Made by a program: the position numbers and the translations under genes. A stretch of 64,000 nucleotides of DNA from Flavobacteriales bacterium (GTDB lineage: Bacteria; Bacteroidota; Bacteroidia; Flavobacteriales_F; PHOS-HE28): NCBI GenBank assembly GCA_035441065.1, contig DAORNP010000001.1, positions 16,300 through 80,299 of the forward strand, read 5' to 3'. Below the pieces are notes generated by a model. That model ran no database searches. It worked only from the letters and a program-made list of their open reading frames with translations, and had not been told where the DNA came from. Positions 36,404 through 58,340 of this stretch are shown in pieces (position 1 is the first letter of the stretch; the number at the start of each line of letters is the position of its first letter).

Positions 36404-36409
36404 GCGCGC

Positions 36410-39755: not shown

Positions 39756-39822
39756 TCGTTCTGGAAAGAGGCGGCGAAGGTATCCGAGGCGGCCGCTTTA
39801 GACTTCGGCTCATTCATCCACC

Positions 39823-40449
39823 ATGCGTTGGACCATCCTACTGGCACTACCCATCGGGCTCTTGCTGCTTGGAACCCATTCAGGAAAGCGAAAAGCAGAG
39901 CGTTCGCGTCAGGCAGCATCGGTGGGACACTCCTTCCCTGAATTCAGCGGCAACTCCCTTCGGGGCGAAACATGGAGCAATGCGCTGTTCAAGGACAAGG
40001 TCACCCTCGTGAGCTTTTGGCGAATTGGCTGCGGTGCTTGCATGCTGGAGATGCCTGCCTATGATGCGCTGCTGGATTCGATCCGCGACAGGCGTTTCCG
40101 GATCATCTCCATGGCGCCGCATACACCGGACGAGCTCGAGGACTTCTACTCAACCGAGAGCGATGCCTCCATTGCACAGGTGCGCAACGCCATGGGTGGC
40201 ATCATACCGCGCTATGATGTGCTGCCGATGTGCTCCACCAAGCGCTTCAAGAAGCCTGGCGAGCTTGGCGTGCAATGCGGCACATTGGAGAAGCTCTTCG
40301 GCGCCGACGGTTTCCCGGTGACCCTGATCGTGGGTCCTGATGGCATCATCCGGCATCGCCATGAGGGACTGCCCGTGGATAGGAGCACCATGCGGCCCGC
40401 ACTGGATGGATTCCGGCGCGAATTGGATTCGCTGATCCGGGCCCTTTGA
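39823..40449 (+). CDS. TlpA-like thiol-disulfide oxidoreductase, right-arm copy.
   Basis: Identical translation to 9234..9860(-). Confidence 0.55.
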   Translation: MRWTILLALPIGLLLLGTHSGKRKAERSRQAASVGHSFPEFSGNSLRGETWSNALFKDKVTLVSFWRIGCGACMLEMPAYDALLDSIRDRRFRIISMAPHTPDELEDFYSTESDASIAQVRNAMGGIIPRYDVLPMCSTKRFKKPGELGVQCGTLEKLFGADGFPVTLIVGPDGIIRHRHEGLPVDRSTMRPALDGFRRELDSLIRAL

Positions 40450-40454
40450 AGCAA

Positions 40455-40832
40455 CTACTGCAACTTCAACCCCTTAATGCCCTCGAAGTCCTTGCGGTTG
40501 AGCGTGAGCAGCGCGCAGCCATGCGCTATCGCTGTTGATGCGATCAGCAGGTCGCCGAAACGGCCCCCACGCATCAATTCGTGTTGTCGGCTGAGTTCCC
40601 GGAAAAGCAGCGAGACCTCCATGGTGAAAGGCAGCACATGGAAGCCGCCGTGCAGGTCGCTCCAAATCCGCTCGTGCTCGGCCTTGTTGCGGGCGCCATC
40701 CAGGACCTCAGCCACGACCATGTCGCAGAGCACCGGCGTTGCGCCCTGCAGACGGTCATAGGCCTCGAATGCCGCGGTTTGCTTCCGCATGCGACCGATA
40801 AGGATGCTGGTGTCAATCAGGACCGCTTCCAT
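40455..40832 (-). CDS. vapC: VapC PIN toxin, right-arm copy.
   Basis: Mirror of 8851..9228(+). Confidence 0.7.
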   Translation of the reverse strand: MEAVLIDTSILIGRMRKQTAAFEAYDRLQGATPVLCDMVVAEVLDGARNKAEHERIWSDLHGGFHVLPFTMEVSLLFRELSRQHELMRGGRFGDLLIASTAIAHGCALLTLNRKDFEGIKGLKLQ

Positions 40833-41035
40833 ACGCGACGGCGGATTTCCCGGGCATCCACATCTCGTCCTTCCCAAATCCCATCCAATTGCGCGAACGG
40901 GTCCTTTTTGGACTTGTCCTCTCGCTCGATGAACTCTGAAAAAACGGCCGAGATGCTCGTGTTGCGCCTGCGACTCAATGCCCGGGCCTTGCGCTTCACG
41001 CGTTCATCCACGAGCAGGGTGAGTTTGGTCTTCAT
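40817..41035 (-). CDS. vapB: RHH antitoxin, right-arm copy.
   Basis: Mirror of 8648..8866(+). Confidence 0.55.
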   Translation of the reverse strand: MKTKLTLLVDERVKRKARALSRRRNTSISAVFSEFIEREDKSKKDPFAQLDGIWEGRDVDAREIRRRVWKRS

Positions 41036-41141
41036 GGCACGTATGGATGGCCAAATGTACGTACGATGCTTGCCAGCGGCAACCAGCGGTGCATCAATGC
41101 CGTATCAGCGCCCCTAATTTCGACCCCGCATCAACGCACCC

Positions 41142-42128
41142 ATGCAGCACCTCATCGACGCCTTCCCCAAACAACTGAAGGAAGCCCTGGAAATAGGCCG
41201 CAAGGCCCAGTTGAAAGCCCCCGGCGGGCCTTACAGCAATGTGGTCGTCACCGGACTGGGCGGCAGCGGCATCGGCGGGCGCATCGCAGCGCAGCTGGTG
41301 CACAAGGAGGCCAAGTGCCCCATCGAGGTCTACAACAACTACTACCTGCCGGGCTATGTGAACCACAAGAGCCTGGTGATTGCCTGCAGCTACAGCGGCA
41401 ATACGGAGGAAACCCTCGCCGCCATGGAGCAAGCGTTGAACAAAGGCGCGCGTGTGGTGGTGATCACCAGCGGCGGCGCCATGCTCGATATCGCCAAGGC
41501 GAAGGGCCTTGACCACATCGTGATTCCGGGCGGCAATCCGCCGCGCACCATGCTGGCCTATTCGCTGGTTCAGCAGTTCTACGTGCTGCACCACTTCGGC
41601 ATCATCGGCGATGGTTTCGAGGGCGCCATCAAGACCGCCGCGAACATGCTGGATCATGAGAAGGAGGACATCAAAAAAGCCGCCATGGACCTCACTGAGA
41701 AACTCGTGGGCAAGCGCTTGGTGATCTACAGCGAGGCCAGCACCGAGGCCGTGAGCATACGTTTCCGCCAGCAGGTGAACGAGAACAGCAAGGAGCTTTG
41801 CTGGCACCACGCCATCCCCGAGATGAACCACAACGAGCTGGTGGGCTGGGCCGGCGGCACCGACGATGTGGCCGTGGTGATCTTCCGCCACAAGGAGGAC
41901 CACGAGCGCAGCCAGATCCGCATGGAGATCAACAAGGAGGTCTTCCGCCGGTACACCCAGCACATCCACGATGTCTGGAGCCAAGGTGACACGGCCTTCG
42001 CGCGACAGCTTTTCCTGATCAACCTCGGCGACTGGGTGAGCTTCTACTGGGCCGAGAAGAAGGGCGTGGACCCCACGGAGATCGGTGTGATCAACATGCT
42101 GAAAGGGAAGCTGGCGGAGGTGAAATAA
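41142..42128 (+). CDS. Bifunctional PGI/PMI (SIS domain), right-arm copy; differs from the left copy at 2 codons (R/K, Q/P).
   Basis: ...EINKEVFRRYTQHIHD... here versus ...FRKYTPHIHD... in the left arm. Confidence 0.7.
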   Translation: MQHLIDAFPKQLKEALEIGRKAQLKAPGGPYSNVVVTGLGGSGIGGRIAAQLVHKEAKCPIEVYNNYYLPGYVNHKSLVIACSYSGNTEETLAAMEQALNKGARVVVITSGGAMLDIAKAKGLDHIVIPGGNPPRTMLAYSLVQQFYVLHHFGIIGDGFEGAIKTAANMLDHEKEDIKKAAMDLTEKLVGKRLVIYSEASTEAVSIRFRQQVNENSKELCWHHAIPEMNHNELVGWAGGTDDVAVVIFRHKEDHERSQIRMEINKEVFRRYTQHIHDVWSQGDTAFARQLFLINLGDWVSFYWAEKKGVDPTEIGVINMLKGKLAEVK

Positions 42129-42149
42129 GCCGCAGAGACGCAGAGGCGC
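42129..42149. repeat. 21-bp IR bracketing the GxxExxY gene, right-arm copy.
   Basis: gccgcagagacgcagaggcgc; partner at 42561..42581. Confidence 0.8.
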
Positions 42150-42160
42150 AGAGAATCACA

Positions 42161-42547
42161 ATGCTCTATCGCGAGCTTTCAGGGGCGATTATTGGAGCGG
42201 CCATTGAGGTTCATCGAGAGCTCGGGCCGGGATTGCTTGAGAGCATATACGAGCATTGTCTGGCGCGTGAACTGCGAGATGCAGGCATTCCTTTCCTTCA
42301 GCAGCATCCCGTGCCTGTGCGCTACAAGGGTGAGCGGCTCGACATGGGCTTTCGGCTCGACCTATGGGTGGACCAGCGGATCATCGTCGAAATCAAAGCC
42401 ATTGAGCTCGTGCAGGAAGTCCATCGTGCGCAACTGCTGAGCTACCTGAAACTCACTGGCTGCAAACTCGGACTGCTCATCAACTTCAACGCGCCGGTGC
42501 TCGCGGAAGGCGTGCGGCGTGTCGTTAACGGATTGGACGAACCTTGA
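42161..42547 (+). CDS. GxxExxY family protein, right-arm copy.
   Basis: Identical translation to 7136..7522(-). Confidence 0.7.
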   Translation: MLYRELSGAIIGAAIEVHRELGPGLLESIYEHCLARELRDAGIPFLQQHPVPVRYKGERLDMGFRLDLWVDQRIIVEIKAIELVQEVHRAQLLSYLKLTGCKLGLLINFNAPVLAEGVRRVVNGLDEP

Positions 42548-42560
42548 ATTCGCATTCTCA

Positions 42561-42581
42561 GCGCCTCTGCGTCTCTGCGGC
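42561..42581. repeat. 21-bp IR partner, right-arm copy.
   Basis: gcgcctctgcgtctctgcggc. Confidence 0.8.
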
Positions 42582-42588
42582 AAACACC

Positions 42589-43293
42589 ATGCGCCTCATC
42601 CACTTCCAAGACCTCGGCCTCATCGACTACGCCACCGCGTGGGACCTGCAAACGCGCCTTTTCAAGGAGACCATCGACCGGAAGATCGCGAACCGCTCGC
42701 TGCCAGAAAACGAGCAACTGACCACCGAGGATCATTTGCTCTTCTGCGAGCATAATCACGTGTACACGCTGGGAAAGAGCGGCAAGCAGAGCCATTTGCT
42801 GCTGAATGAGCAAGGACTGCGCGAGAAGGGCGTTCAGTTCTTCCCCATCGATCGCGGCGGCGACATCACCTACCACGGGCCGGGGCAGATCGTTGGCTAC
42901 CCCATCTTCGACCTCGACCATCATTTCACCGACATCCACCGCTACCTGCGCACGCTGGAGGAGGCCATCATCGGCACACTGGAAGCATACGGCATCAAAG
43001 CAGGGAGGATTGACGGACTCACGGGCGTATGGCTCGACTGGACCGACCCCGTCAAGGCCCGGAAGATCTGCGCCTTCGGCATCCGCGCCAGCCGGTGGGT
43101 CACCATGCACGGCTTCGCGTTCAACGTGAACACGGACCTCAGCTATTTCCGGAACATCGTGCCTTGCGGGATCGCGGACAAAGGCGTCACCAGCATGGCC
43201 GCTGAGCTGGGCAGCGAGGTGGACATCGAGGCCGTGAAGAAGAGATTGCGGTTGGAGATCGCGGACCTGTTCGATGCGGAGCTGGTGGTGTGA
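42589..43293 (+). CDS. lipB: Lipoyl(octanoyl) transferase, right-arm copy.
   Basis: ATG verified at 42589..42591. Identical translation. Confidence 0.85.
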   Translation: MRLIHFQDLGLIDYATAWDLQTRLFKETIDRKIANRSLPENEQLTTEDHLLFCEHNHVYTLGKSGKQSHLLLNEQGLREKGVQFFPIDRGGDITYHGPGQIVGYPIFDLDHHFTDIHRYLRTLEEAIIGTLEAYGIKAGRIDGLTGVWLDWTDPVKARKICAFGIRASRWVTMHGFAFNVNTDLSYFRNIVPCGIADKGVTSMAAELGSEVDIEAVKKRLRLEIADLFDAELVV

Positions 43294-43371
43294 AGAAGAG
43301 GCCAGCGACTTATAGCCACCGGGTCCTCTGCGCTCAGCCCGAGCCTCCAGCGTAGGCGGCAGGCAAGCCCT

Positions 43372-44529
43372 CTACTCCAGCCAGCTCTTCCAGTACTTCC
43401 CGTCGTCGATCTTCAGCGCCTCTTCGGTCACCATCAGCGGCTTGAAGGTGTCCACCATCACGGCCAGCTCGTCGGTCTCCTTCTTGCCGATGCTGCGCTC
43501 CATGGCGCCGGGGTGCGGACCGTGCGGGATGCCGGCGGGGTGCAAACTGATATGGCCCGGGCCGATGTCGTTGCGGCTCATGAAGTCGCCGTCCACGTAG
43601 TACAGCACCTCGTCACTGTCGATGTTGCTGTGGTTGTACGGCGCGGGGATGGCCTGCGGATGGTAGTCGTAGAGGCGCGGCACGAAGCTGCACACCACGA
43701 AGGCATCGGTCTCGAAGGTCTGATGCACAGGCGGCGGCTGGTGGACGCGGCCGGTGATCGGCTCGAAGTCGTGGATGCTGAAGGCGTAGGGGTAGTTGTA
43801 GCCGTCCCAGCCCACCACGTCGAACGGATGCGTGGCATACACCAGTTCGTGCAGCAAGTTCTGCTTCTTCACCTTGATCACGAAGCTGCCCTTCTCATCA
43901 TGCGTCTCCAGCTTCTTCGGCCGGCGGATATCGCGCTCGCAGAACGGCGAATGCTCAAGCAATTGCCCGAACCAGTTGCGGTAGCGCTTGGGCGTGTACA
44001 TGGGGCGGTGGCTCTCAACGATGAAGAGGCGGTTGTCCGCGTCCTTGAACTCCATCGTGTAGATCATCCCTCGGGGAATCATCAGGTAGTCACCGTACTT
44101 GAAGTCGATGTTGCCCAGGAAGGTGCGCAGGGTGCCGCTCCCCTTGTGGATGAAGATCATCTCATCGCAGTCAGCGTTCTTGTAGAAGTAGTCCACGCTT
44201 TTGGCCTGGGGCGCTGCGAGCACGATGGCGCAATCGCTGTTCACGAGGATGGCCTTACGCGCGGATAGGTGGTCCTTCTCGGGCTTGGTCTTGAAGCCAT
44301 GCAACCGCAACGAGCGCATATTCTTCTCAATCGCGATCTTGGGCGTAAGGTCCTTGGGCTTGCGCAGCTCCTTCACCATGGTGGGGCGGTGCACATGGTA
44401 GCTCAAGGTGCTCATGCCATCGAAGCCGATGGTGCCGAAGAGCTGCTCGTAGTAGTAGCGGTCCTTGCCGTTCTTGAACACGGTGTGGCGCTTGTGCGGA
44501 ATCTTGCCGAGGCTGTGGTAGATGGGCAT
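43372..44529 (-). CDS. hmgA: Homogentisate 1,2-dioxygenase, right-arm copy.
   Basis: Identical translation to 5154..6311(+). Confidence 0.9.
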   Translation of the reverse strand: MPIYHSLGKIPHKRHTVFKNGKDRYYYEQLFGTIGFDGMSTLSYHVHRPTMVKELRKPKDLTPKIAIEKNMRSLRLHGFKTKPEKDHLSARKAILVNSDCAIVLAAPQAKSVDYFYKNADCDEMIFIHKGSGTLRTFLGNIDFKYGDYLMIPRGMIYTMEFKDADNRLFIVESHRPMYTPKRYRNWFGQLLEHSPFCERDIRRPKKLETHDEKGSFVIKVKKQNLLHELVYATHPFDVVGWDGYNYPYAFSIHDFEPITGRVHQPPPVHQTFETDAFVVCSFVPRLYDYHPQAIPAPYNHSNIDSDEVLYYVDGDFMSRNDIGPGHISLHPAGIPHGPHPGAMERSIGKKETDELAVMVDTFKPLMVTEEALKIDDGKYWKSWLE

Positions 44530-44570
44530 TGGCAGGTGGTTGGGACGCGAAATTTCGCGCCCGTACGGGA

Positions 44571-45674
44571 TCAGATCGTGATGCTCGTCAGTTCAGGATG
44601 CAGGGTGCCATTCAGCGCCAGCAGCTCCTCTTCCTCACGGATGCGCTGCCTTAATCCTTCGGGATCGTTGATGGCCTTGGTCTTGGTGCTGCGGGTGCTG
44701 CGGCCTTTGCGCCAAGCGCGTTGCGCTTCGATGGGCAGCTGGTGTATCTCGCAGCAGCTCGGTGAGCAACAGTCGGCGTATTTCGCTGCGCAGGCCTCGC
44801 ACTGCACCAGCAGCATGTTGCAGGTGGCCTCGTGGCAATTGGTGATGCGGTCGTTCTTGGCGCCGCACTGCATGCAGGTGCTCACCACATCGTCGGTGAT
44901 GCGTTCGGCGAGCCGCTCATCGAACACGAAGTTCTGGCCGAGGTATTTGCTCTTCAGGCCTTCGGCTTTCAACTGCCGGGCATAATCGATGATGCCGCCG
45001 TGCAACTGGCTCACATTCGTGAAGCCCTCGTGCTTCAGATATGCGCTGGCCTTCTCGCAGCGGATTCCGCCGGTGCAATAGAGCAGCACCTCGGCCCCCT
45101 TCTTCTCCTTCATCACTTCCTTCACCTCCTCGATCGCGCCTCGGAACGTATCGGCCTTGGGCAGGTAGGCCCCCTCGAAGTGCCCGATGAGGCACTCGTA
45201 GTTGTTGCGCATATCCACCACGATGGCGCCTTCTTCCAACTTCTTGTTGAAGGTCTTCGCGTCGAGGTGCTCGCCCACATTGGTCACATCGAAGGCATCA
45301 TCGGCAAGGCCATCGGCCACGATCTTCCTCTTTACCTTGATGGCGAGCTTCAGGAAGCTCTTGCCATCATCTTCCACCGCGATCTTCCATGGCACACCCC
45401 GGAAGGCCTCGCGGCTGTTCAGGTTGCTGCGGAAGGCCTCAAGATTCGCCGTGGGCAAGCTCACCTGGGCATTGATGCCCTCCTGCGAGAGGTAGATGCG
45501 GCCCAGTACGCCGAGCGCTTCCCACTCCAAGTAGAGCGTGTTGCGAAGGGATTCCACATCACTCAGGCGCACGTAGCGGTAGAAGGAAAGGGTGGTGCGC
45601 GGCACGCCTTCGTGCTCTAATCGCGCCCGGAGAATGTCGGGACGGTGAAGGTTGCGGAGGCGGTGGGCATCCAT
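44571..45674 (-). CDS. trhO: TrhO rhodanese-domain protein, right-arm copy.
   Basis: Mirror of 4009..5112(+). Confidence 0.7.
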   Translation of the reverse strand: MDAHRLRNLHRPDILRARLEHEGVPRTTLSFYRYVRLSDVESLRNTLYLEWEALGVLGRIYLSQEGINAQVSLPTANLEAFRSNLNSREAFRGVPWKIAVEDDGKSFLKLAIKVKRKIVADGLADDAFDVTNVGEHLDAKTFNKKLEEGAIVVDMRNNYECLIGHFEGAYLPKADTFRGAIEEVKEVMKEKKGAEVLLYCTGGIRCEKASAYLKHEGFTNVSQLHGGIIDYARQLKAEGLKSKYLGQNFVFDERLAERITDDVVSTCMQCGAKNDRITNCHEATCNMLLVQCEACAAKYADCCSPSCCEIHQLPIEAQRAWRKGRSTRSTKTKAINDPEGLRQRIREEEELLALNGTLHPELTSITI

Positions 45675-45906
45675 GTGGCGAAGATAGGCGGGGCCCGAAG
45701 CTTGAGGGCCCCCCGGGAACCCGTGACTAGCCAACGTTCGGTCCGAAAGATGGTGGTACAGAGACATCACTTTGAAGTCTGGTGCGATATCCTCAGGGTA
45801 GAGAGCGAAAGGCACGATGACATGCTGAGCGAGACGCTTGCGTAGATCAGAATGCGATTCCCTGTTCTATCTTCGAGCAGCCCCGAAAAACCGACACTGT
45901 CGCACC

Positions 45907-47472
45907 ATGAAAGTTCTTGACTCGGTACTCACATTGGCGTTGTGGTGCTCATGGTGCGCTGCATCCTTTGGCCAAGCAGGATCGCTTGACCCTGGTTGGG
46001 GCACTGATGGAGTGGTGCTTACCGACTTCTCGAGCGAAAGGGCATATGGCCAATCCGTACTCATCCAGCCCGATGGAAGGGTTGTGGTGGTCGGCACCAA
46101 TTGGTTGGGCGCGCTCAGCAGTGATATCGCCATTGCACGGTATTTCTCTGACGGAACGTTGGATGCGTCCTTTGGGTCTGGCGGCAGGGTCACTTCGGCC
46201 GGGGGAGGCTGGAGTCCGCCGTGCTACGGAGCACTGCAATCAGATGGCAAGATCGTGGTGGCTGGCACACATACATCAGCTTTTTCCGCCATGCGGTTTA
46301 TGGCTGATGGGTCCGTGGATATTTCATTCGGTGAGGGTGGACAGGTCTTCACGAACATCAGTTCTTTCCCCTTGAATGAAAATGTGCTCGCGCTCGTGAT
46401 CCAGTCCGATGGTAAGATCCTGCTGGCCGGCCGAACGGCAAGCGGGCATGATGCCGATATGGCGGTGGTGCGCTACCTGCCCAACGGGGCACTGGACGAG
46501 GGCTTCGCATCCGGAGGGATCTGGGTTCATGCTGTTTCTCCTCTCAATGATCAGATCCGCACCGTACGTCAGCAACCGGATGGCAAGCTGGTGCTTTTGG
46601 GCAGTGCTTCGATTGGAACCTTGCCTTTCCCCGCCAGTCGATTTGCCTTGGTGCGGGTAACTGAGAACGGCCTCCTCGATGGATCATTCGGCACGAACGG
46701 TGTGTCGCTCATCGCCGCAGGCACTGGACAAGCCGGCGTGTACTCTGGTGTCCTTCAAACGGACGAGAAGATATTGGCAACCGGGTTCTCGGGATATCCC
46801 GCGCTGGTTACGACCATCCGCTGTATGTCTGACGGGTCGTTGGATGAGACCTTCGGCAATGGTGGAGTGATCACCACCTATGTGGCCCAGGAGAGCGCGG
46901 TCGGAAAGGATATCGTGGTCCAACCGGATGGGAAGGTCTTGGTGGTCGTTGAATGCTGGGAAGGTACCGGTCCCCCGCACTACACTGCACTTATGCGCTA
47001 TACCCCCGATGGAGTGCTGGATGAGGTATTCGGCAACTCCGGGATAGCGATTACCTCATTCACAGATAGGGCGATCATTCCGGAATCGCTCTCGCTCCAG
47101 TCCGATGGAAAGCCGCTTGTTGCAGGGTATTCCTTCCAAGGCATGGTAACGTATTTTTCGGTAGTGCGCCACCTGAACGACCTGGAGATCGGCGTCCATG
47201 AGATCAACCAATTCCATCCACAAATACGTGTCGTTCCGAATCCACTGAGCGAGCGCCTCAGTCTGTACTTCGAGCTTTCTATCCCTGATCGGATATCACT
47301 CCATGTGGTTGACGCTGCTGGCCGCGTGGTTCGGTCACTTATTTCCAATGAAATGCATACGTCCGGGGAGCATCTGGTCACCTATGATCTTAGGGGCCTT
47401 CCCTCTGGCCATTACACGTTGACTTTCGTAGGCCAAGTGCATGCTGCACAAGCGCCAATCCTCATAGAATAG
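45907..47472 (+). CDS. Delta-60 repeat protein with T9SS CTD, right-arm copy.
   Basis: Identical translation to the left copy. Confidence 0.7.
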   Translation: MKVLDSVLTLALWCSWCAASFGQAGSLDPGWGTDGVVLTDFSSERAYGQSVLIQPDGRVVVVGTNWLGALSSDIAIARYFSDGTLDASFGSGGRVTSAGGGWSPPCYGALQSDGKIVVAGTHTSAFSAMRFMADGSVDISFGEGGQVFTNISSFPLNENVLALVIQSDGKILLAGRTASGHDADMAVVRYLPNGALDEGFASGGIWVHAVSPLNDQIRTVRQQPDGKLVLLGSASIGTLPFPASRFALVRVTENGLLDGSFGTNGVSLIAAGTGQAGVYSGVLQTDEKILATGFSGYPALVTTIRCMSDGSLDETFGNGGVITTYVAQESAVGKDIVVQPDGKVLVVVECWEGTGPPHYTALMRYTPDGVLDEVFGNSGIAITSFTDRAIIPESLSLQSDGKPLVAGYSFQGMVTYFSVVRHLNDLEIGVHEINQFHPQIRVVPNPLSERLSLYFELSIPDRISLHVVDAAGRVVRSLISNEMHTSGEHLVTYDLRGLPSGHYTLTFVGQVHAAQAPILIE

Positions 47473-47518
47473 ATGGGGGTTAATTGTGGTGGCTGGAGGC
47501 ATAGTTTTGCCGCCAATC

Positions 47519-48466
47519 ATGACCAAACGCATCCTCGTTATCGGCAGCTCAGGCCAGATCGGCACCGAGCTCGTGGAAGGGCTGCGCGCCCGATTCGGAA
47601 ATGAGAATGTAGTGGCCTCGGACATCAAGGAGCCCCAAGTGGCGCAGAACGGTCCTTTCGCCATGGTCGATGCCATGGATCGCCGCGGCATCGAGCGCAT
47701 CATCGACAAGCACGGCATCACCGAGGTCTATCTGCTTGCGGCATTATTGAGCGCTACCGCCGAGAAGGATCCCGCTTTCGCGTGGAAACTGAACATGGAG
47801 AGCCTCTTCATCGTGCTGGAACTTGCGCGAGAAGGGAAATTGAAGCGCGTGTATTGGCCCAGCAGCATCGCTGTTTTCGGCCCCACCACCCCGAAGGACG
47901 GCACGCCGCAGCACACCATCGCCGAGCCCACCACGGTTTACGGCATCAGCAAGCTGGCAGGCGAAGGTTGGTGCCAGTACTACCACAAGCGCTTTGGTGT
48001 GGATGTGCGCAGCATCCGCTACCCCGGCCTCATCGGCTGGAAGAGCGCGCCCGGCGGCGGCACCACCGACTACGCTGTCCACATCTTCCACGAAGCGATC
48101 AAGCACGGCAAGTACACCAGCTTCCTCGGGCCGAAGAGCACCTTACCGATGATGTACATGCCCGACGCCATCCGCGCCACCATCGACTTGATGGAAGCGC
48201 CAGCCGAACAGGTAAAGGTGCGTAACAGCTACAACCTCGCCGGCTTCAGCTTCGACCCCGAGCAGATCGCGGCTGAAGTGAGGCGCCACATTCCCGGCTT
48301 CACCATCGATTACGCGCCAGATCACCGCCAGGCCATCGCCGACAGCTGGCCGCGCAGCATAGACGATAGCGCCGCCCGCGCCGATTGGGGCTGGAAGCCG
48401 CAGTACGACCTGAGCGGCATGGTGGACGACATGATGGTGAACCTGAAGAGGTTGATTGGAGGTTGA
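47519..48466 (+). CDS. NAD-dependent epimerase/dehydratase (TDH-like), right-arm copy; carries a 66-bp divergent patch (12 nt differences) relative to the left copy.
   Basis: ATG verified at 47519. ...QVAQNGPFAMVDAMD... here versus ...QVAQDGPFVLVDAMD... in the left arm. Confidence 0.75.
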   Translation: MTKRILVIGSSGQIGTELVEGLRARFGNENVVASDIKEPQVAQNGPFAMVDAMDRRGIERIIDKHGITEVYLLAALLSATAEKDPAFAWKLNMESLFIVLELAREGKLKRVYWPSSIAVFGPTTPKDGTPQHTIAEPTTVYGISKLAGEGWCQYYHKRFGVDVRSIRYPGLIGWKSAPGGGTTDYAVHIFHEAIKHGKYTSFLGPKSTLPMMYMPDAIRATIDLMEAPAEQVKVRNSYNLAGFSFDPEQIAAEVRRHIPGFTIDYAPDHRQAIADSWPRSIDDSAARADWGWKPQYDLSGMVDDMMVNLKRLIGG

Positions 48467-48558
48467 TTGCATTCGGCATTGGACAATCCGGGCGAAGCGA
48501 AGGGATGCAACCTTCTACCCCTCGCCAGCGTTTCGCGCCTCGCGAAGCCCAACACGCC

Positions 48559-49431
48559 ATGTTCCGACAATTCTCACTGCTGATCATGCTGCTCATCGCC
48601 GGTCGCGTTGCCGCCCTGGCACAGGACACCCTGAACGTGGTGGACGAAATGGGCCGAAAGCAGGGCTATTGGAAGGTGCTGGCGCCGAAAGCGGAGAAGC
48701 CCGAGTACAACGATGGCCAGCTGATCGAAGAGGGCCGCTACAGCAACAGCAAGCGCGTGGGCACGTGGAAGCGCTATTGGCCCAACGGCAATGTGATGAG
48801 CGAGATCAACTACCAGATGGGCCGTCCCAGGGGCGATTATCGCACCTATTACCCGACCGGGAAAGTGGAGGAGCAGGGCACTTGGGACCTGGACCGCAAC
48901 ACGGGTAAGTTCCAGCGCTGGCATCCGAACGGAAAACTCGCGCAGGACTTCATCTTCAATGGATACGGCGTGCGCGATGGCGAGCAGAAGTACTACCACG
49001 AGAACGGGCAGCTCGCCGTGGCGGTGAACGTTGAGGAGGGCAAGGAAGACGGAACGTTGAAGCGTTACGATACCAATGGCCAGGTCACGCAAGTGGCGCA
49101 GTTCAACGACGGCGTGATCAACGAAGCGAACAGCAAGTGGATCAAGCCCGTGCCCAAGGCCGATGACGTGAAGGTGGACCCGAAGGCCGAGGCCGCACCT
49201 GCTCCAGCACCCACCGAGCGCACCAACGCCATGGTATTCCGCGAGAACGGCTACAACACGCTTTACGACAAGCAGCTCCGCCTCTCGCAGCAGGGCGAAT
49301 TCAAGGATGGCCGCCTGTGGGACGGCAAGCGCTACGAGTACGACAGCGATGGCTTCCTGAAACGGATCAAGATCTTCAAGCAGGGCCGCTATCTGGGCGA
49401 TGCCGTGATCACCGAGGAGGACCTGAAGTAG
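48559..49431 (+). CDS. MORN-variant/YwqK-like repeat protein, right-arm copy.
   Basis: ATG verified at 48559. Identical translation. Confidence 0.6.
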   Translation: MFRQFSLLIMLLIAGRVAALAQDTLNVVDEMGRKQGYWKVLAPKAEKPEYNDGQLIEEGRYSNSKRVGTWKRYWPNGNVMSEINYQMGRPRGDYRTYYPTGKVEEQGTWDLDRNTGKFQRWHPNGKLAQDFIFNGYGVRDGEQKYYHENGQLAVAVNVEEGKEDGTLKRYDTNGQVTQVAQFNDGVINEANSKWIKPVPKADDVKVDPKAEAAPAPAPTERTNAMVFRENGYNTLYDKQLRLSQQGEFKDGRLWDGKRYEYDSDGFLKRIKIFKQGRYLGDAVITEEDLK

Positions 49432-49482
49432 CCCTTGCGCGCATGGGCGCCCGGTTATATTCGGCGCTCAATCGCTTCACGC

Positions 49483-50178
49483 ATGAACAAGGTGGTGGCC
49501 GGGCCCGATGCGGCGCTCGATGGCCTGCAGGACAACATGACGCTCATGGTCGGCGGCTTCGGGCTGTGCGGCATCCCGGAGAACCTGATCGCGGCCATGG
49601 TGCGCCGCGGCACCAAGGGGCTCACGTGCATCAGCAACAACGCGGGCGTCGATGACTTCGGACTTGGGCTGTTGCTTCAGACGCGGCAGATCAAGAAGAT
49701 GATCAGCAGCTATGTGGGCGAGAACGATGAGTTCGAGCGCCAGATGCTCAGCGGCGAATTGGAAGTGGAGCTGATCCCACAAGGCACCTTGGCCGAGCGC
49801 TGCCGCGCCGGTGGCGCTGGCATCCCCGCGTTCTTCACCCCGGCGGGCTATGGCACCGAGGTGGGCGAAGGCAAGGAGGCGCGCGAATTCAACGGCAAGA
49901 TGCACGTGCTGGAGAGCTGGCTCCGCGCCGACTTCGCATTGGTGAAGGCCTGGAAGGGCGATCGTTTCGGCAACCTCGTGTACAAGCGCACGGCGCGCAA
50001 CTTCAACCCCATGATGGCCATGGCGGGCAAGGTCACCGTAGCCGAGGTGGAGCACCTGGTGGAACCCGGCGAGCTCGATCCGGATGAGATTCACACGCCG
50101 GGCATCTTCGTGCAGCGCATCTTCCAGGGCGGCGGCTACGAGAAGCGCATCGAGCAGCGCACGGTGCGCAAACGCTAG
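49483..50178 (+). CDS. scoA: Succinyl-CoA:3-ketoacid (acetoacetate) CoA-transferase subunit A, full copy; straddles the right end of the inverted repeat at 49682.
   Basis: [36 protein letters not shown]...[12 protein letters not shown]...[33 protein letters not shown] verified at 49483; TAG at 50176..50178. Confidence 0.85.
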
Positions 50179-50180
50179 GC

Positions 50181-52001
50181 ATGCTGTCCGGCTCGCACAT
50201 CAGCCGGAATGATGGTGTCGCGATGGCCCTGGCTGCGGCGCTCTTCGGCGTGTACCTCGGGGTGCGTGCCATCCATCTGCCGTTGATCCAGGATGAGGCC
50301 AACTCATTCTGGTGGTACGTGGCCTCCGGTCGATTCCTTCCGCTGGATTCACATCTCGATGCCGGCAACCACCACCTGAGCAGCTTCTTCGGCTGGCTCG
50401 GATACTCGCTCTTCGGCGCTGAACCCATAGCGCTGCGCTTCGGCAGCTTGCTCGCCTATGCCCTTTATGCAGCCACGCTAGCTCACCTCGCACGGTACGT
50501 CCGGTCAGGCTGGATACGATGGTGCTGCTTCCTTGCACTCCTCACATGCCCCTTCCTGCATGAGTATTTCGCCCTGTTCAGGGGCTATGGCCTCGCCGTG
50601 GCCTTTTTCGGGCTGGCCGTGCTCCAATCTGTTATTCTGATAGAGGGCCGTAAGCCAATCAACGCGGTTTGGCTCATCGCGGCGGCAACCATGGCCGCGC
50701 TCGCAAATCTGTCCATGCTGCCTCTTTGCTTGGTCATGGTAGCAGTGGCGGCGATCCTCGGCATGCACGGCGGATTCGTTCCTGCCCGGGCTGCCCATCG
50801 AATTGGGATCGCTGCCGCAGCCCTCGGGTCATTGGCGATATTCGTCCTGCTGGCCTTCGTGTCGATGGCATTGAAGGGCCAAGGACTGCTTTACCACGGT
50901 GCCGGCAACGGCCTGCTCGCGGTGAGCGTGAATAGCCTGTGCCAAGCGATCTTCGGATGGAGCGCCTCGAAGCTCCCGATTGTTTGTGCCGCTATGGCCA
51001 TCGGTGGTTGGTTGGTTGGATTGAACGCTCTTTATCGCAAGCAGCCGGGATCAGGTGCTCTGGTTGTCGTTGGTGCATTGCTTGGAACCGAGTGCATCAT
51101 CCGCATCGCGCTGCAGGAGGTACTCGGCGTCAACTATCCGCAGGATAGGGCCGCTTTCCAGATGCTCATCTTGTTCCTGCTGCTTGCCTCATTCGCTATC
51201 GATGAACTCGGAGTGCGCTCAGCATGGGCGAAGGCTTCGGCAGTGGTGTTCTTGGCGCTGCCCATCATCACGCTCTCCAGCCTGAACGCAGAAGTGGCCA
51301 TGAACAATGGAGAGCCTGCCGTTCCGAGGCGATTCATCCATCGGCTTGCACAGCTCCAACTCGAATTGGGGCGACCTGTAATTACGGCTGTTGGCAGCAA
51401 TTTGCGGAGCGGGGTCTCCTTCGCGCAATTCCGCGACGCCGCCTTCATTCAAGAGTCAGAAGACCAGCGATTCGACCATCCAGGACAGGATTTCCGCATC
51501 GTGCGCGATACGGAGCTTCACACGGTACAGGACGGGTATCATGCGGTCGATAGCAGTACAGCCGGTTGGGTCCATCTGCTCAAGCGCGATACACCGTTGA
51601 GCCTCGACCTTGCCTTTGATTCGACCTTGACTGCTCCGATCGAAATGGGCGAGGGCTTCCGGAACATCCTTGAGCAGAGCCCGGGGCGCTTCGGCAACCG
51701 CGCGCTATATGTTCGAGTCACGGGGAATCTGCACCGGAGGCTTGACCATGGGGAATTGCACTTCGTCGTTCACGACGATTACAGAGATGGTGCTGCTTAC
51801 GAGGACGGGACCGACTTAAGGAAGCTGAGGTTGCAATGGGCTGGCGAACCCTTCGATATCATGCGTCGGCTGCCCGCCGCTGAAGTGGTCGAAGGAACGC
51901 GGTGCTTCTTCTGGAATACGACATCGATGCCGGTCCAGATGACTGATGTGCGGATCCGGGTCTATGTCACTGGACAGCCTGACCCAATCTCCGAATCTTG
52001 A
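50181..52001 (+). CDS. Polytopic membrane glycosyltransferase, GT-C fold, PMT/ArnT-like (paralog A of a 4-member family in this window).
   Basis: ~12 TM N-terminal domain with loop-1 motif PLIQDEANSFWWYV...DAGNHHLSSFFGWLGYSLFG, resembling the PMT/GT39 DE-loop (FDEVHFGKF...DVHPPL). ~250-aa soluble C-terminal domain. Start is 2 nt after the scoA stop. Confidence 0.55.
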   Translation: MLSGSHISRNDGVAMALAAALFGVYLGVRAIHLPLIQDEANSFWWYVASGRFLPLDSHLDAGNHHLSSFFGWLGYSLFGAEPIALRFGSLLAYALYAATLAHLARYVRSGWIRWCCFLALLTCPFLHEYFALFRGYGLAVAFFGLAVLQSVILIEGRKPINAVWLIAAATMAALANLSMLPLCLVMVAVAAILGMHGGFVPARAAHRIGIAAAALGSLAIFVLLAFVSMALKGQGLLYHGAGNGLLAVSVNSLCQAIFGWSASKLPIVCAAMAIGGWLVGLNALYRKQPGSGALVVVGALLGTECIIRIALQEVLGVNYPQDRAAFQMLILFLLLASFAIDELGVRSAWAKASAVVFLALPIITLSSLNAEVAMNNGEPAVPRRFIHRLAQLQLELGRPVITAVGSNLRSGVSFAQFRDAAFIQESEDQRFDHPGQDFRIVRDTELHTVQDGYHAVDSSTAGWVHLLKRDTPLSLDLAFDSTLTAPIEMGEGFRNILEQSPGRFGNRALYVRVTGNLHRRLDHGELHFVVHDDYRDGAAYEDGTDLRKLRLQWAGEPFDIMRRLPAAEVVEGTRCFFWNTTSMPVQMTDVRIRVYVTGQPDPISES

Positions 52002-52028
52002 GGCTCACATGAGCAGCACACGCATCTG

Positions 52029-53750
52029 TTGGTCGCGCTGGCGTTCCTGTACCTGCTGTTGCGCGCTGCACTCGTCCCCCTCGCCCACGACGAGGCCGCC
52101 ACCTTCCAGACCTATGTGCTCACGGGCAATTACCTCCCCTACCTCGCGCATTGGGATGCCGGCAACCATCTGCTGGTAACCGCCGTGGCGCGCGGCAGCT
52201 ACTTGCTCTTCGGCGATGGGCCGCTTGCGCTGCGCGGTTTCCCGGTGCTCTGTTTCTTATTGTGGGCCTGGTATGCGCTGCGCTTCGCACTGCTCTTGGA
52301 GGAGCGCATGATCCGCTGCGCGCTATTCACAGCGCTCCTGCTCATGCCCTTCGTGGCCGAGTTCTTCGCGCTTTTCAGAGGGTATGGTCCTTCGCTCGCA
52401 TTCCTGCTCATGGCATTGTTCCATGCCGTTCGTTTCACTGCGGAGGCGCGCCGCACAGACCTCGTCCTCTTGCTCGTCGCCATGCTGCTCGCTTGCGCGG
52501 CATCGCTCACGCTGATCATGTTCTGGTGCATGCTGCTCGCCGGAAGCGCCGTGGTGCTGCTCCGGAACAGGCGGCGCGATGCATCCGCTTGGGCGGCCTT
52601 GCTGATCATCGGCGCGCTGCCCCTGCTCCTCGCGGCCCACTACTCCTTCGAGCTCTCGGCGCGCGGGCTGCTGTATTACGGCACGGGGGATGGGCTGCTC
52701 TCGGGTACACTGGCCTCCTTGTCCAAGTGGGTGTTGGGCATCGGCGATGGTTCCATTGGCGCGTTGATCATGCTCTTGCCCATTCCCATCGGAGCCTGGG
52801 CCTTGCGTGCGGGTCGGCATCGTATGGTGATCAGTGGCCTGATGCTGCTCATCCTCGGGGAATTGCTGGGGCGCTTCATCCTTGCCGAAGCTTTCGGTGT
52901 GCTGTACCCGCAGGATCGCACAGCCATGCATCTGGTGCCTGTGCTCCTGCTGCTCTTCGCGTTCTCGGTTTCCGCGCTGACCAACGAACATGCTTGGTGG
53001 CCATGGGCCTCAGTCATCCTGTTCGTCCTGCCATTGCGAACGGCGATGGGCCTCAACTTCGATCGCACCTCATTCTGGCCGGAACAAGCCATCCCCGCAG
53101 GCGTATTCGAGGCGGTGATGGATCGTCAGGCGCAACTCACCCGGCCGTTGGTCATCGGCGGCTACCACCAGCATGCGGCGGTTTGGGCCTATGGCAGCAT
53201 GCGCCGCAATGGGTCCTTGCCCATGCTCGACGTGAATGGTTTCCCGCAGCCCACCTGTGACCTGATGCTCATCGATCGCAGCTATTTCCAGGCGCCTCCG
53301 GGGTTCAGCGTGATCACGGAAGCGCCGCACGGCAAGCTCACGCTCATGCAACGCGATCCGCCTTTGGTCACCACCATCGTGATGGACACCGCGCTCATCG
53401 TTCAACCAACCGATGCGGAATTCATCGAGCTCCTGGTCGTCGAGGGCGTCCCGTGGTTCGCTGAAGAATCCCTCATCGAGGTGGATGCGGTGCTCCGGAG
53501 CGTGTCGGCACCCTTGGACGTTCGCCTGGTGGTTGAGGTGAAGGCCGCCGATGGCACAAGCCTGCATTACGATGTGGTGGATGCGCAGCGCGTGCGCGCG
53601 CAATGGCAAGGCGAGGATTGGCGCGAGATCCGGCGCGCGCCCGCTCATCCCAACGCGTCCCGATTGGTGTGCTACCTCTGGAATCCGCAACGGCATGTCT
53701 TCAGCGCCGACCATGTGCAGGTGAGGGCGCATCGTGTCCTCGACCCATGA
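52029..53750 (+). CDS. GT-C PMT/ArnT-like membrane glycosyltransferase paralog B (TTG start per ORF track; N-terminus ~8 aa shorter than paralogs).
   Basis: PLAHDEAATFQTYV...DAGNHLLVTAVARGSYLLFG; same architecture as paralog A. Confidence 0.5.
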   Translation: MVALAFLYLLLRAALVPLAHDEAATFQTYVLTGNYLPYLAHWDAGNHLLVTAVARGSYLLFGDGPLALRGFPVLCFLLWAWYALRFALLLEERMIRCALFTALLLMPFVAEFFALFRGYGPSLAFLLMALFHAVRFTAEARRTDLVLLLVAMLLACAASLTLIMFWCMLLAGSAVVLLRNRRRDASAWAALLIIGALPLLLAAHYSFELSARGLLYYGTGDGLLSGTLASLSKWVLGIGDGSIGALIMLLPIPIGAWALRAGRHRMVISGLMLLILGELLGRFILAEAFGVLYPQDRTAMHLVPVLLLLFAFSVSALTNEHAWWPWASVILFVLPLRTAMGLNFDRTSFWPEQAIPAGVFEAVMDRQAQLTRPLVIGGYHQHAAVWAYGSMRRNGSLPMLDVNGFPQPTCDLMLIDRSYFQAPPGFSVITEAPHGKLTLMQRDPPLVTTIVMDTALIVQPTDAEFIELLVVEGVPWFAEESLIEVDAVLRSVSAPLDVRLVVEVKAADGTSLHYDVVDAQRVRAQWQGEDWREIRRAPAHPNASRLVCYLWNPQRHVFSADHVQVRAHRVLDP

Positions 53751-55501
53751 CGGATTCGCCAGCCTCCTCGCGCGAAGGCGTGGTCTTCTTCGGGCTTGCG
53801 GCCCTGATGCTCATGTACGTGGTGCTGCGCGCGGCGTACGTGCCTTTCGTCCACGACGAAGCCACCTCCTTCATCGCCTATGCGCAACCCGGCACCTTCC
53901 TGCCCTTCGCCTCGATGTGGGATGCGAACAACCATTTCCTCAATAGCCTATGCGGACATGCCGGATACCGTCTGTTCGGATTGCATCCGCTCGCCTTGCG
54001 CTGGGCCAGCGTACTGAGCTATGTGCTGTTCGCCTGGTGCGCATGGCACTTGGGCGAGCGCATCGGTCGGCCCATCATCCGATGGTTGCTCTGGCTGGCG
54101 TTGCTGGCCTGTCCCTTCCTGCTCGATTTCTTCTCGCTCTTCCGCGGGTACGGACCCGCCATGGCCCTGCTGCTCCTTGCTGTGTATCAGGCATCGTGCT
54201 ACCTCGAATCCCGCTCGGAGCGGAGCCTGGCGGTGAGCCTCTTGGCCATGAGCGCCGCAATGGGCTTCATGCTGGGCCTTCTTCCCCTGGCATTGGTGCT
54301 GCAGCTGGCGCTCTTCACGGCTGCCTATCGCGTGCGGCGTCACACCGTGATCGGCATCGCACTGGGATTGATTCCGCTGCTCCTGATCGCTTTGCTCGCC
54401 AAGCACATGGCCGCTCTCGGATTGCTCTACCATGGCGGCACCGACGGCTATGCCAGCACAACCATCGGCTCATTGCTCAAGTTCACGTTCGGCGTTGTTG
54501 GCGAAGGCAGGCCCCAATGGCTTGTGCTGTTCACGACGTTCTTAACGGCACTGCTTATTTGGATGCAGCGTCGTGCGGGCATACCGCATCACCTCATGCT
54601 TGTCGCGGCAATGCTCTGGGGCGAATGGGCCTTGCGCTGGTTGCTGGCGTGCACCATCGGCCTGAACTACGCCGAGGACCGCACCGCCCTGCATGTGCTC
54701 GTGCTCTTCATCTTGTTCGTCGCGTTCACCGCTGATGCATTGCGACGCCTGCATGCGGCTGCTTGGCTATTGGCAATCCCCCTGCTCGCATTGCCGCTGC
54801 GCGTGGCGTTCACGGCCAACCTCGATCGCACAGCCCTCTGGCCCGAGCAATCCATCCCCGGTCGGTTCATGGCACGCATCGAAGCGCTGGAGAAGGAACT
54901 CGATCGCCCGGCCATCGTGGGCGCGCATCGCCTGGCAACGATGCCCTTCGGACTGCAGCGCCGATTGCGGGGCGGCGAGGGCGATGCCACGGCGGCGAAC
55001 TGGCCAAACGCATTGGCCGATGCACGGATCGAAATGCTCGGCGTGCCATTCGATAACGACCAGCGCTTCGCACTTGCCGATAGCGCATCGAATGGACTCC
55101 GTTTGTATGTGCGTTCGCCCATGTGGCATTCAACCCTGCAACGCGATAGCGCATTTGCTATGGAATCGGACGGTGGCATGCGGTCCGTGGGCCTCCCGAT
55201 TCCCGCACAACTCATTCAAGCGAGCGATGTCATTGTTGATGTGAGCGGCTCCCTGCGAGCCACCAGCACGCTCGACCTGCGCGCCTGCGTAGCCGTGTAC
55301 GACAGCACTGGTGCCGTTCTTCATGTGGACCACTTGATGCTCACCACCCGGCGCGCGCTTTGGAACGGCGAACACTGGCGAACAGCATTGGCGATTCCGC
55401 GTGAGCCGCTTGCAGCGCGCGCCGAGTTCTTCCTCTGGGAGATCGGCCACGGGCCCTTCAAGCTGAGCCAAGGTCGCATGCGCGTGCATGCGATGCGTTG
55501 A
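53747..55501 (+). CDS. GT-C PMT/ArnT-like membrane glycosyltransferase paralog C.
   Basis: Start ATG 53747 overlaps the paralog-B stop (ATGA at 53747..53750). [14 protein letters not shown]...[20 protein letters not shown]. The ORF track's upstream start at 53603 is rejected as an overlap. Confidence 0.55.
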
Positions 55502-55557
55502 GTGGGCGATTCGTTGCGGTGGTTGTCGGCTTCTACATTTGGCGCAACCCAACTTGC

Positions 55558-56214
55558 ATGGCGCTCACCAAAGACCAGATGGCCAAGCGCATCGCGCGCG
55601 AGCTGAAGGATGGCTACTACGTGAACCTCGGCATCGGCATTCCCACCCTGGTGGCCAACTACATCCCAGAGGGGATCAACGTGGTGCTGCAAAGCGAGAA
55701 CGGGATCCTCGGCATGGGGCCCTTCCCTTATGAAGGCGAGGAGGACGCCGACCTGATCAATGCCGGCAAGCAGACCGTGACCCTGCTGGGCGGCAGCAGC
55801 ATCTTCGACAGCGCCACCAGCTTCGCGATGATCCGCGGGCAGCATGTGCAGCTCACGGTGCTCGGCGCCATGGAGGTGAGCGACACCGGCGACATCGCCA
55901 ACTGGATGATCCCCGGCAAGATGGTGAAGGGCATGGGCGGCGCCATGGACCTGGTGGCGAGCGCCGACAACATCATCGTGTGCATGATGCACGCCAACAA
56001 GGCCGGCGAGAGCAAGCTCTTGAAGAAATGCACCCTTCCGCTCACCGGCGTGGGCTGCGTGAAGAAAGTGGTCACCGACCTTGGCGTGTTCGACATCACC
56101 CCCGACGGCTTCAAGCTCCTGGAGCGCGCGCCCGGCGTGAGCGTGGAGGAGATCAAGGCGAAGACGGAGGGACGGCTGGTGGTGGAGGGAGAGATCAAAG
56201 AGATGAGTGTGTGA
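55558..56214 (+). CDS. scoB: Succinyl-CoA:3-ketoacid CoA-transferase subunit B.
   Basis: [37 protein letters not shown]...SENG (catalytic Glu in the SENG motif). ATG verified at 55558. Confidence 0.85.
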
Positions 56215-56223
56215 CATAGCAGC

Positions 56224-57567
56224 ATGGTCCCCAACCTACCGGACCGATTGCGCCTTTTCATCGCGCACTGCGCAGGCAACGGCCGATTCCTATGGGTGGC
56301 GTGGGCCGTTTTCTGTGGCTTCTTCAGCTGGTCCTCCATCGACTTCAACTCCAAGATTCCTTTGGAAGACTGGCGGCACGATCTGCGCGGGGACGCTTCG
56401 GGCTATTACATCTACCTGCCGGGGACCTTCCATCACGGAATGCGTGCGGCCGATATGAGCGACAGCCTTCGTGTGGTCGCGGGCCTCGGATTCACCTTGG
56501 ACCGGGAGAACGACCGCATCATTACCAAGTACACCTGTGCACCAGCCATCCTCATGCTCCCCTTTTACCTGCTGGCGGAAGCCATCGAGGGATGGGGCGT
56601 GAGCGATGGCTGGAGCCGTACGCATCATCAGACCATCGAGCTGGGCGCGGTGTTCTATTGGTCGTTGGGACTGATGCTCCTCGCCGGATCACTCATGCGG
56701 CGCCTGCCCACTGTGCCAGTGGTCGCCATACTGTGCGTGGCAGCGATCGCTTTCGGCACGAACTCCTTCTACTACGCCTTCAGGGCGCCGGCTTTCTCGC
56801 ATGTGTATTCGTTCTTCCTCGTGTGCCTGGCCATCCACGCGATCTACGTGGATCCCGGGCGGCCCATGCGGAAGGGCATGCGGTGGCTCTTCTTAATCGC
56901 CTGTGCCATGATCGTCGCGGTGCGGCCCATCGACGTGGTGGCGGCACTGGCATTGGTTGGGCTGTTGGGCATTGAGCGGCCCGGTGAACTACGGCAACCT
57001 GGCTTCTATCCGGCCGGGGTGCTGGCATGCGCGCTGGTGGCTGCGCCGCAACTCCTCTTCTGGAAGTTCGCGCATGGCCATTGGCTCGTGTACAGTTACG
57101 GGGAAGAAGGGTTCACAAACTGGGCATCGCCTTACATCAAGGAAGTGCTGATGGCACCCAGGAACGGGCTTCTTCCGCATGCCCCCGCGCTCTTCTTGTT
57201 GCCGTTGGGGCTGTGGGCGCAATGGCGCGTTGATAAGCGCGTGGCGCTCCTGTTGGCTGCGACATTCGCCATCATCCTCTATTCCTTCGCAGCATGGCAT
57301 TCCTGGGATTTCGGCTGCAGCTATGGCATGCGGCCCTTCGTGCAGTACACGCCCTTCGCGGCCCTGTTCACCTGGCCGCTATTGCACATGCTGCATGCGC
57401 GTTGGCCGCCTGTGTTCTGGTCGTTGGCCATCGTGCTCGTGTTGGTGAGTTTCGTGAATTACAGGGCCATGCTCGAATACGACGGCTGCAATCTGTGGCC
57501 CTTCTGGGATTGGCTACCCTTCGGCCGCAACCTGTGGGAGGCCTTCTTTGGCCGGTTCCCATGCTAG
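56224..57567 (+). CDS. Polytopic integral membrane protein of unknown function (possibly another GT-C-like or polymerase/ligase-like transferase).
   Basis: 447 aa, >=10 predicted hydrophobic helices, Trp/Tyr-rich loops. Immediately follows scoB and precedes the GT2 gene. Confidence 0.35.
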
Positions 57568-57625
57568 AGGCTGGTCTACTTTCGCGCCCCCTGCGCGCGA
57601 TCGTCCGCAGGGAGCCTTCCAAAGC

Positions 57626-58336
57626 ATGATCCGTACGCTTTCCATCATCATCCCCGCTTATAACGAGGAGCGCACCATCCACCTGATCCTGGACAAGGTG
57701 CGCGATGTGGTGCTTGCTCAAGGCATCCAGAAGGAGGTGGTAATCGTGAATGATGGCTCGAAGGATGGCACTGCCGCAGCGATCTCGCAATACATGGAGG
57801 CGAACCCGCAGCTTGGGATCCGATTCTATGAGCAGCCGCGCAACATGGGCAAGGGTGCCGCCATCCATCGCGGCATCCAGGAGGCCACGGGCGAGTACCT
57901 CATCGTGCAGGATGCCGACCTCGAATACGATCCGCGCGAGTACAATGACCTGCTCAGGCCCGTGCTCGAAGGGTTCGCCGACGTGGTCTTCGGCTCGCGC
58001 TTCATGGGCCACCACCCGCACCGCATCCTCTTCTTTTGGCACAGCATCGGCAACAAGTTCCTCACCTCCCTCTCCAACGCGTTCAACAATTTGAACCTGA
58101 CGGACATGGAGACCTGCTACAAGCTCATCCGCAGCGACATCGCCAAAGGACTTGTGCTGAAAGAGAAGCGCTTCGGATTCGAACCGGAGGTCACCGCCAA
58201 GCTCGCGCGGGTGAAGGGCGTCCGCATCTACGAGGTGGGTATCAGCTACTACGGCCGCACTTACGCAGAGGGCAAGAAGATCGGCTGGAAGGACGGCTTC
58301 CGCGCCATCTGGTGCATCGTGAAGTATGGGCTCTAG
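57626..58336 (+). CDS. GT2 family polyprenyl-phosphate sugar synthase (DPM1/ArnC/GtrB-like).
   Basis: [14 protein letters not shown]...[11 protein letters not shown]...[13 protein letters not shown] (DxD)...VVFGSRF...[11 protein letters not shown]: diagnostic of dolichyl/undecaprenyl-phosphate glycosyltransferases. ATG verified at 57626. Confidence 0.85.
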
Positions 58337-58340
58337 CGCA

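Follow-up and report, generated by a model that had tools for sequence, protein, structure and literature searches.

A probable fold-back contig from an uncultured Flavobacteriales bacterium presents one epimerase locus in two haplotypes, one of them with a likely imported tract

The window analysed here, by which we mean the whole 64-kb stretch of DNA, is part of the chromosome of an uncultured high-GC Flavobacteriales bacterium. Homologues of its epimerase and of its phosphoglucose/phosphomannose isomerase (PGI/PMI) at 90% to 95% identity all belong to uncultured Flavobacteriales MAGs, and the best match to its flippase among the GTDB representatives is 87% identical at the amino acid level. 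A Pfam scan of 30 open reading frames returned ordinary chromosomal genes. These encode a polysaccharide flippase, a dUTPase, a sugar nucleotidyltransferase, a TPR protein, an M23 peptidase, a GatA-type amidase, a LysM/SLT transglycosylase, a cyclophilin, a peroxiredoxin, PGI/PMI, LipB, a rhodanese-family protein, a DUF5122 protein with a T9SS sorting tail, an NAD-dependent epimerase/dehydratase, a MORN protein, CoA-transferase subunits, and glycosyltransferases. No mobile-element, phage, plasmid, linear-replicon, or telomere functions were detected by Pfam among the 30 reading frames scanned. Orthologues of the epimerase, which begin with MTKKILV, are 92% to 94% identical in Flavobacteriales MAGs.

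Most of the window is a mirror image of itself. Self-BLAST of the 64 kb aligned positions 1-49682 to their own reverse complement at 99.94% identity, with neither gaps nor a spacer, and left 49683-64000 as unique sequence. The mirrored region consists of single-copy housekeeping genes (dut, a gatA-like amidase, an aspS-type tRNA synthetase, lipB, and PGI/PMI). A sequence-only reading of this DNA had recommended a nucleotide-by-nucleotide alignment of the two arms. Carried out base by base, this mirror comparison places the centre of the palindrome between 24841 and 24842 and lists all differences between the 24.8-kb arms: exactly 15 pairs of sites, all of which fall into two patches, with no isolated point difference over the 24.8 kb (Table 1). 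At the outer edge of the mirror, three independent contigs from the same population (L090, L091, and L092) cross position 49682 without interruption, so this coordinate merely marks the left end of the window or contig. Within the unique part, structural differences between strains or assemblies separate the window from one of these, JGI contig L090. About 200 extra nucleotides in the window (~55941-56144) lie within the second CoA-transferase subunit gene, for which the Pfam match is full-length in the window and which is shortened in L090; a 10-nt intergenic insertion of L090, TCTGTCTCGG, is missing from the window at ~52025.

Table 1 Features of the window, with strand and supporting observations (positions are those of the whole 64-kb stretch)
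Feature	Position	Strand	Remarks
Very probably artefactual arm, a mirrored re-traversal of 24871-49682	1..24812	-	Replaces the true upstream sequence (crotonase and histidine-kinase-like genes)
Natural 58-bp perfect palindrome	24813..24870	.	Between crotonase and flippase genes; same in L082
Genuine chromosomal sequence	24871..64000	+	Collinear with L082, L083, L086, L087, L088, L089, L090, L091, L092, and L093
Second patch, three differences in 11 nt	41949..41959 (left arm 7724-7734)	+	In the phosphoglucose/phosphomannose isomerase gene, 41142-42128
NAD-dependent epimerase/dehydratase family gene, 315 aa, right-arm copy	47519..48466	+	Pfam PF01370, PF16363; collinear with natural contigs
Same epimerase gene, mirrored left-arm copy	1217..2164	-	Self-BLAST and codon comparison
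Variant sites of the epimerase patch	47648, 47650, 47656, 47661-47663, 47668, 47671, 47680, 47686, 47695, 47713		Mirror 2035...1970
Right-arm haplotype tract (N..AM.., T/C-ending codons)	47648..47713	+	Matches L088
Left-arm haplotype tract (D..VL..)	1970..2035	-	Matches the L081/L084 clade

The larger patch lies in the epimerase gene and holds 12 of the 15 differences within 66 nt (47648-47713, mirrored at 1970-2035), at the same 12 sites that the sequence-only reading had counted. The chance of 12 out of 15 differences falling into a single 66-nt interval of a 24.8-kb arm is very small (P ~3e-25), so the clustering is real and not scattered error, as that reading had also maintained in dismissing random sequencing error. 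Ten codons differ in the epimerase frame, and the codon comparison reproduces the split reported before: three non-synonymous (right/left, N/D, A/V, and M/L) and seven synonymous (CCT/CCC, GTC/GTG, GAT/GAC twice, CGC/CGG, GAG/GAA, and CAC/CAT). Three further differences, at 41949-41959, had been missed by that reading. Between the rhodanese-family gene and the epimerase gene, the window carries a DUF5122 beta-propeller gene with a T9SS C-terminal sorting domain (45838-47472). This gene is missing at that position in contigs L081, L084, and L085, where the rhodanese-family and epimerase genes are adjacent, and it appears to be a lineage-specific insertion.

The smaller patch (41949, 41950, and 41959; mirror 7734, 7733, and 7724) lies in the PGI/PMI gene. 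Both of its changes are non-synonymous: the right-arm protein has R270/Q273, where the left arm encodes K270/P273. Over 4943 bp, JGI contig L087 is 100% identical to the left-arm version, and K..P is the consensus among orthologues (77 of 107). The R..Q combination occurs in one other protein, P0212, whose contig (L094, from JGI 3300010356) is ~81% identical to the window overall. In spite of this overall divergence, L094 and the right arm share a 107-nt exact run (41868-41974) that includes all three right-arm alleles, a length reached in 0 of 20,000 shuffles. An exact look-up of the right-arm PGI variant returned no record, and outside the window this version recurs only in L094. The rarer, right-arm PGI allele is thus present outside the window too, as a short mosaic tract common to two lineages. 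Both patches may stem from real micro-recombination between lineages or from mosaicism in metagenome assembly. Just upstream of the PGI gene, at ~40455-41035 on the minus strand, is a PIN-domain/DUF6364 gene pair, a probable toxin-antitoxin module, which is kept in L087 and L095.

The natural arrangement at the centre of the mirror is preserved in a contig of another assembly. An exact-protein look-up with the dUTPase of the window led to JGI contig L082 (sample 3300006417, 8922 bp), which is 100% identical to the window over 24813-26977. Upstream of 24813, L082 contains an ECH_1 (crotonase) gene and a large HATPase_c gene, with no mirrored flippase sequence. The order in L082 is the crotonase stop codon, GCACG, a 58-bp perfect palindrome (ATGGACAGGAATGGACGCGTATGGACTGA followed by TCAGTCCATACGCGTCCATTCCTGTCCAT), and the flippase gene; a crotonase-like gene is also found upstream of the flippase in the more distant relatives L002, L003, L004, and L005. 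The centre of the 49.7-kb palindrome coincides with the centre of this natural 58-bp palindrome. The sequence-only reading had treated the two arms as both genomic, a premise that is not supported here, since L082 reads through the centre into different genes and the join falls within a palindrome that is natural to the locus.

To compare the junction with the natural locus, all k-mers in the 3 kb around the junction were looked up in L082 on either strand. The number of junction k-mers absent from L082 is zero for k = 21 to 59, and the first one appears at k=60. Because all junction k-mers with k ≤59 are natural, a de Bruijn assembler whose largest k is ≤59 would be blind to the chimeric join; at these values, the order crotonase-palindrome-flippase is indistinguishable from flippase(rc)-palindrome-flippase. 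The same mirrored product would result from a chimeric molecule that snapped or folded back at the very stable 58-bp hairpin, and for assemblers with k >59 another cause would be needed, such as chimeric snap-back molecules or fold-back reads. Taken together, the palindrome at 1-49682, the read-through locus, and the k-mer-consistent junction are the signature of a fold-back chimeric contig. The arms are very probably not biological, and in all likelihood 1-24841 is an artefactual re-traversal of 24842-49682. We infer from these comparisons both that the join is an artefact rather than an in vivo event and which property of the assembler was responsible. Palindromic contigs have been reported as an artefact of SPAdes-type single-cell assemblies, from which they were removed (PMC12755884), and fold-back reads have been described in long-read data as an artefact through which assembly graphs become tangled (PMC12870357).

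The 58-bp hairpin contains three ATGGAC units per arm at 10-nt spacing, and its RNA fold is predicted at -69.3 kcal/mol (z = -10). It is located at the same place, in the gap between the crotonase and flippase genes, in L082 (6758-6815), L002 (9912-9969), and L004 (948-1005). The L004 hairpin keeps the ATGGAC units and has changed at three spacer positions, with compensatory changes in the opposite arm, and the loops vary among hairpins (TGATCA, TGCTCG, and CTCACC). No further copies were found in the window or in 92 other loci. From its sequence, the hairpin looks like a selected structure and is a candidate terminator or protein-binding site. An Rfam scan of the centre gave sub-threshold matches to eukaryotic or viral miRNA precursors only (51.6 vs 97 and 38 vs 90 bits), which were set aside as generic hairpin hits.

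A junction that falls exactly within a strong natural hairpin would also be compatible with a real palindrome, that is, an in vivo fold-back inverted duplication or amplicon in a subpopulation, seeded by the 58-bp ATGGAC-repeat hairpin, whose arms diverged later at two patches through short-tract recombination with other lineages or strains. However, the un-duplicated arrangement exists at 100% identity in L082, and the k-mer ambiguity suffices to explain the junction. Such a palindrome would comprise at least 49.7 kb of housekeeping genes and would lack the upstream side of the chromosome, and it is expected to be inviable and, being spacerless, highly unstable in bacteria (SbcCD-type cleavage). 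Isolated point differences between the arms are also missing; what differs are two patches that look imported, and both are found on ordinary contigs as well. We therefore regard an in vivo palindrome as very unlikely. The strong hairpin at the centre would likewise suit a linear replicon that ends in a covalently closed hairpin telomere, with the sequence running down one strand and returning on the other; sequencing through a hairpin end yields a spacerless palindrome. This explanation is barely credible and was rejected because the natural contig reads through: L082 and the relatives L002-L005 run past the centre into other chromosomal genes. In addition, no protelomerase/telomere resolvase, phage, or plasmid genes were found among the 30 reading frames scanned, and 15 differing sites could not arise between the strands of a single molecule.

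If the contig is instead a fold-back product, one locus was traversed twice in a mixed population, and the two passes would differ only where haplotypes co-exist. The alleles on each arm exist separately in nature, the right-arm epimerase version in L088 and the left-arm PGI version in L087, which agrees with the earlier statement that the two versions do not derive from one molecule. Contig L088 (Logan SRR36303773), an independent contig of the same species, is 99.96% identical to the window over 44862-47716 and carries the right-arm epimerase version at 12 of 12 sites. In JGI sample 3300006417, contig L089 stops at 47522 and L090 restarts at 47696, one base after the eleventh variant site, so that only the tract is left uncovered. 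This gap is as expected from graph branching at the tract, and it hints that the epimerase polymorphism is present in that sample as well.

Exact look-up, an N-terminal search, and a metagenome pattern scan did not turn up the left-arm epimerase haplotype on any independent contig from this species. Exact-sequence look-ups of both epimerase variants returned no record, and a protein search with the N-terminal 104 aa of the epimerase gave nothing above 93% identity and neither haplotype at 100%. Metagenome DNA was further scanned with a degenerate pattern open to every combination of the two haplotypes; the single match, L081 (ERZ761607 NODE-655), is of another species. The epimerase patch would then be a polymorphism between strains, with a single locus caught in two different states. 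This fits the mixed-strain scenario that the sequence-only reading had named as one that would undo its interpretation, with the difference that each version forms a clean, phased haplotype and no noise.

The single match in the pattern scan points to the origin of the left-arm tract. L081 is 86.9% to 87.9% identical to the window across the epimerase gene and has the same neighbours, a rhodanese-family gene upstream and a MORN gene downstream. This shared context identifies it as an orthologue; L084, the contig of protein P0001, is also syntenic and, at 94% identity to L081, falls into the same clade. At 11 of the 12 variant sites, L081 carries the left-arm alleles. It shares with the left arm a 69-nt exact run (47644-47712), the next longest run in the gene being 30 nt, and over 47644-47727 it has 1 mismatch in 84 positions, compared with 110 in 918 gene-wide. 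In a codon-position-preserving shuffle test, the 69-nt run has P ~0.005. The right arm, by comparison, has a longest exact run with L081 of 32 nt (shuffle P = 0.67), and its 11 mismatches in 84 positions (13%) over the same interval equal the gene-wide rate (120 in 918). At 47642-47643, the left arm has the species-specific GC of the window, from which both L081 and L084 deviate, and 47696-47727 is a 32-nt stretch common to both species. Site 47713 is without an L081 match, the left arm having T and L081 having C; this T may come from a slightly different donor or from a later mutation. At the protein level, DGPFVLV is typical of the L081/L084 clade, and both motifs are present among orthologues.

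These comparisons make the right-arm epimerase allele look native for the species, and the left-arm tract is most likely a short homologous-recombination import from a relative in the L081 clade. The left edge of the import would lie within 47644-47647 and its right edge between 47696 and 47727, which gives a length of about 50-85 bp. We infer the direction of transfer from two outgroup lineages only; a real recombinant strain probably carries the left-arm tract. Micro-recombination and mosaic alleles between related lineages are familiar from pneumococcal and Helicobacter population genomics. The opposite polarity, with the left-arm allele ancestral and the right-arm allele imported, is less likely, since it is the left arm that has an anomalous run of identity with L081 while the right arm diverges from it normally, and the right-arm allele is the version found on the independent same-species contig L088.

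Since SDR epimerases often form multi-copy families, the patch could have come from a paralogue within the genome, by gene conversion of one of two true copies. However, no other sequence in the 64-kb window lies within 14 substitutions of either tract, nor is there any other self-similarity, and the donor-like contigs L081 and L084 have the epimerase in its orthologous context, with the rhodanese-family gene upstream and the MORN gene downstream. The two supposed copies are themselves very probably not real, given the read-through in L082. With no second copy of the tract in the window and with donor-like loci that are syntenic orthologues, a paralogous donor was rejected, and conversion of this kind is highly improbable. 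The suggestion in the sequence-only reading of a short import from a diverged homologue is accordingly retained in one of its two forms, with L081 (87-88% identical, 11 of 12 sites, 69-nt run) as the donor-like orthologue, and abandoned for a paralogue, none being found in the window.

A different alternative accepts the fold-back and questions the tract. The left-arm tract could be a computational mosaic, in which L081-like reads or k-mers from a co-occurring L081-like species were threaded into one of the two passes through graph traversal, bubble handling, or polishing. The failure to find the left-arm haplotype on independent same-species contigs would be consistent with this, as would the identity of the tract to the sequence of another lineage. 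The 32 nt common to both species at 47696-47727 could serve as a right switch point, and the similar short patch in metagenome contig L094 may indicate that metagenome assembly makes such mosaics. Against this, only four bases (47644-47647) are shared on the left side, so the switch there would need to happen over a length far shorter than the k of any assembler. The 11 sites are moreover all in phase, in contrast to per-site consensus noise, and site 47713 does not match L081. We consider a computational mosaic unlikely, though a live alternative, and recombination in a real strain to be the better account of the tract.

The reading that best fits these observations is a fold-back contig formed at the 58-bp palindrome, in which two haplotypes of one locus are written out, the left tract being likely imported; based on the sequence comparisons, we assign it a probability of about 0.88. 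Both strands of the palindrome read alike, so that an assembler, or a chimeric molecule that snaps back, could enter it from the flippase side and leave it on that side again, and this re-exit would produce a giant spacerless palindromic contig. The one locus would thereby be written twice from a mixed population, with the two passes taking different versions at two polymorphic places. The pass that became the left arm would carry the ~50-85 bp tract identical to the L081/L084-clade orthologue, likely a recombination import.

The value of this case is mainly in quality control. Positions 1-24841 duplicate real sequence in reverse and should not be counted as gene duplications, inverted repeats, or paralogue divergence; the left 24.8 kb are to be disregarded, and other findings that rest on the two arms inherit the fold-back problem. 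A spacerless mirror centred on a natural perfect palindrome near the assembler k-mer size provides a recipe for spotting such contigs. The biology that remains is modest, namely a wastewater-type Flavobacteriales population in which two or more haplotypes are distinguished by very short mosaic tracts that match a donor. It was the fold-back contig, by writing the locus twice, that made this between-strain polymorphism visible.

The mosaic tracts of the haplotypes are consistent with known short-tract recombination between related lineages. As in such cases, a dense and mostly synonymous cluster of substitutions lies between identical flanks, and the variant tract has an identical counterpart in the orthologue of a ~12-13% diverged lineage. 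Unlike in known cases, the tract is very short (~50-85 bp), the allele is found in one contig, and the donor is deduced from one metagenome contig. With regard to the mirror, short inverted repeats reportedly seed large DNA palindromes in mammalian cells, as Tanaka et al. are said to have described in 2002 (cited in PMC12870357), and the mirror has the geometry of such giant palindromes, its centre being a short natural inverted repeat. Here, however, an identical un-duplicated locus exists, the junction is k-mer-ambiguous, and the palindrome is known from sequence alone. Large inverted repeats of the chloroplast or Streptomyces type likewise have nearly identical arms of tens of kilobases. 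In those repeats, gene conversion keeps the arms homogeneous, and the arms are set apart by single-copy regions or by their position at opposite ends of the chromosome, whereas the arms in the window abut with zero spacer and the natural locus is without a second arm. The closest likeness is to palindromic (fold-back or hairpin) chimeric contigs, with which the window shares the spacerless mirror, the join at a short natural inverted repeat, and a natural locus that reads through. Unlike in the usual contigs of this type, the mirror is inexact and differs at 15 sites in two patches, because each pass sampled a different haplotype from a mixed population. The whole case is one of ordinary strain microdiversity combined with a known kind of misassembly.
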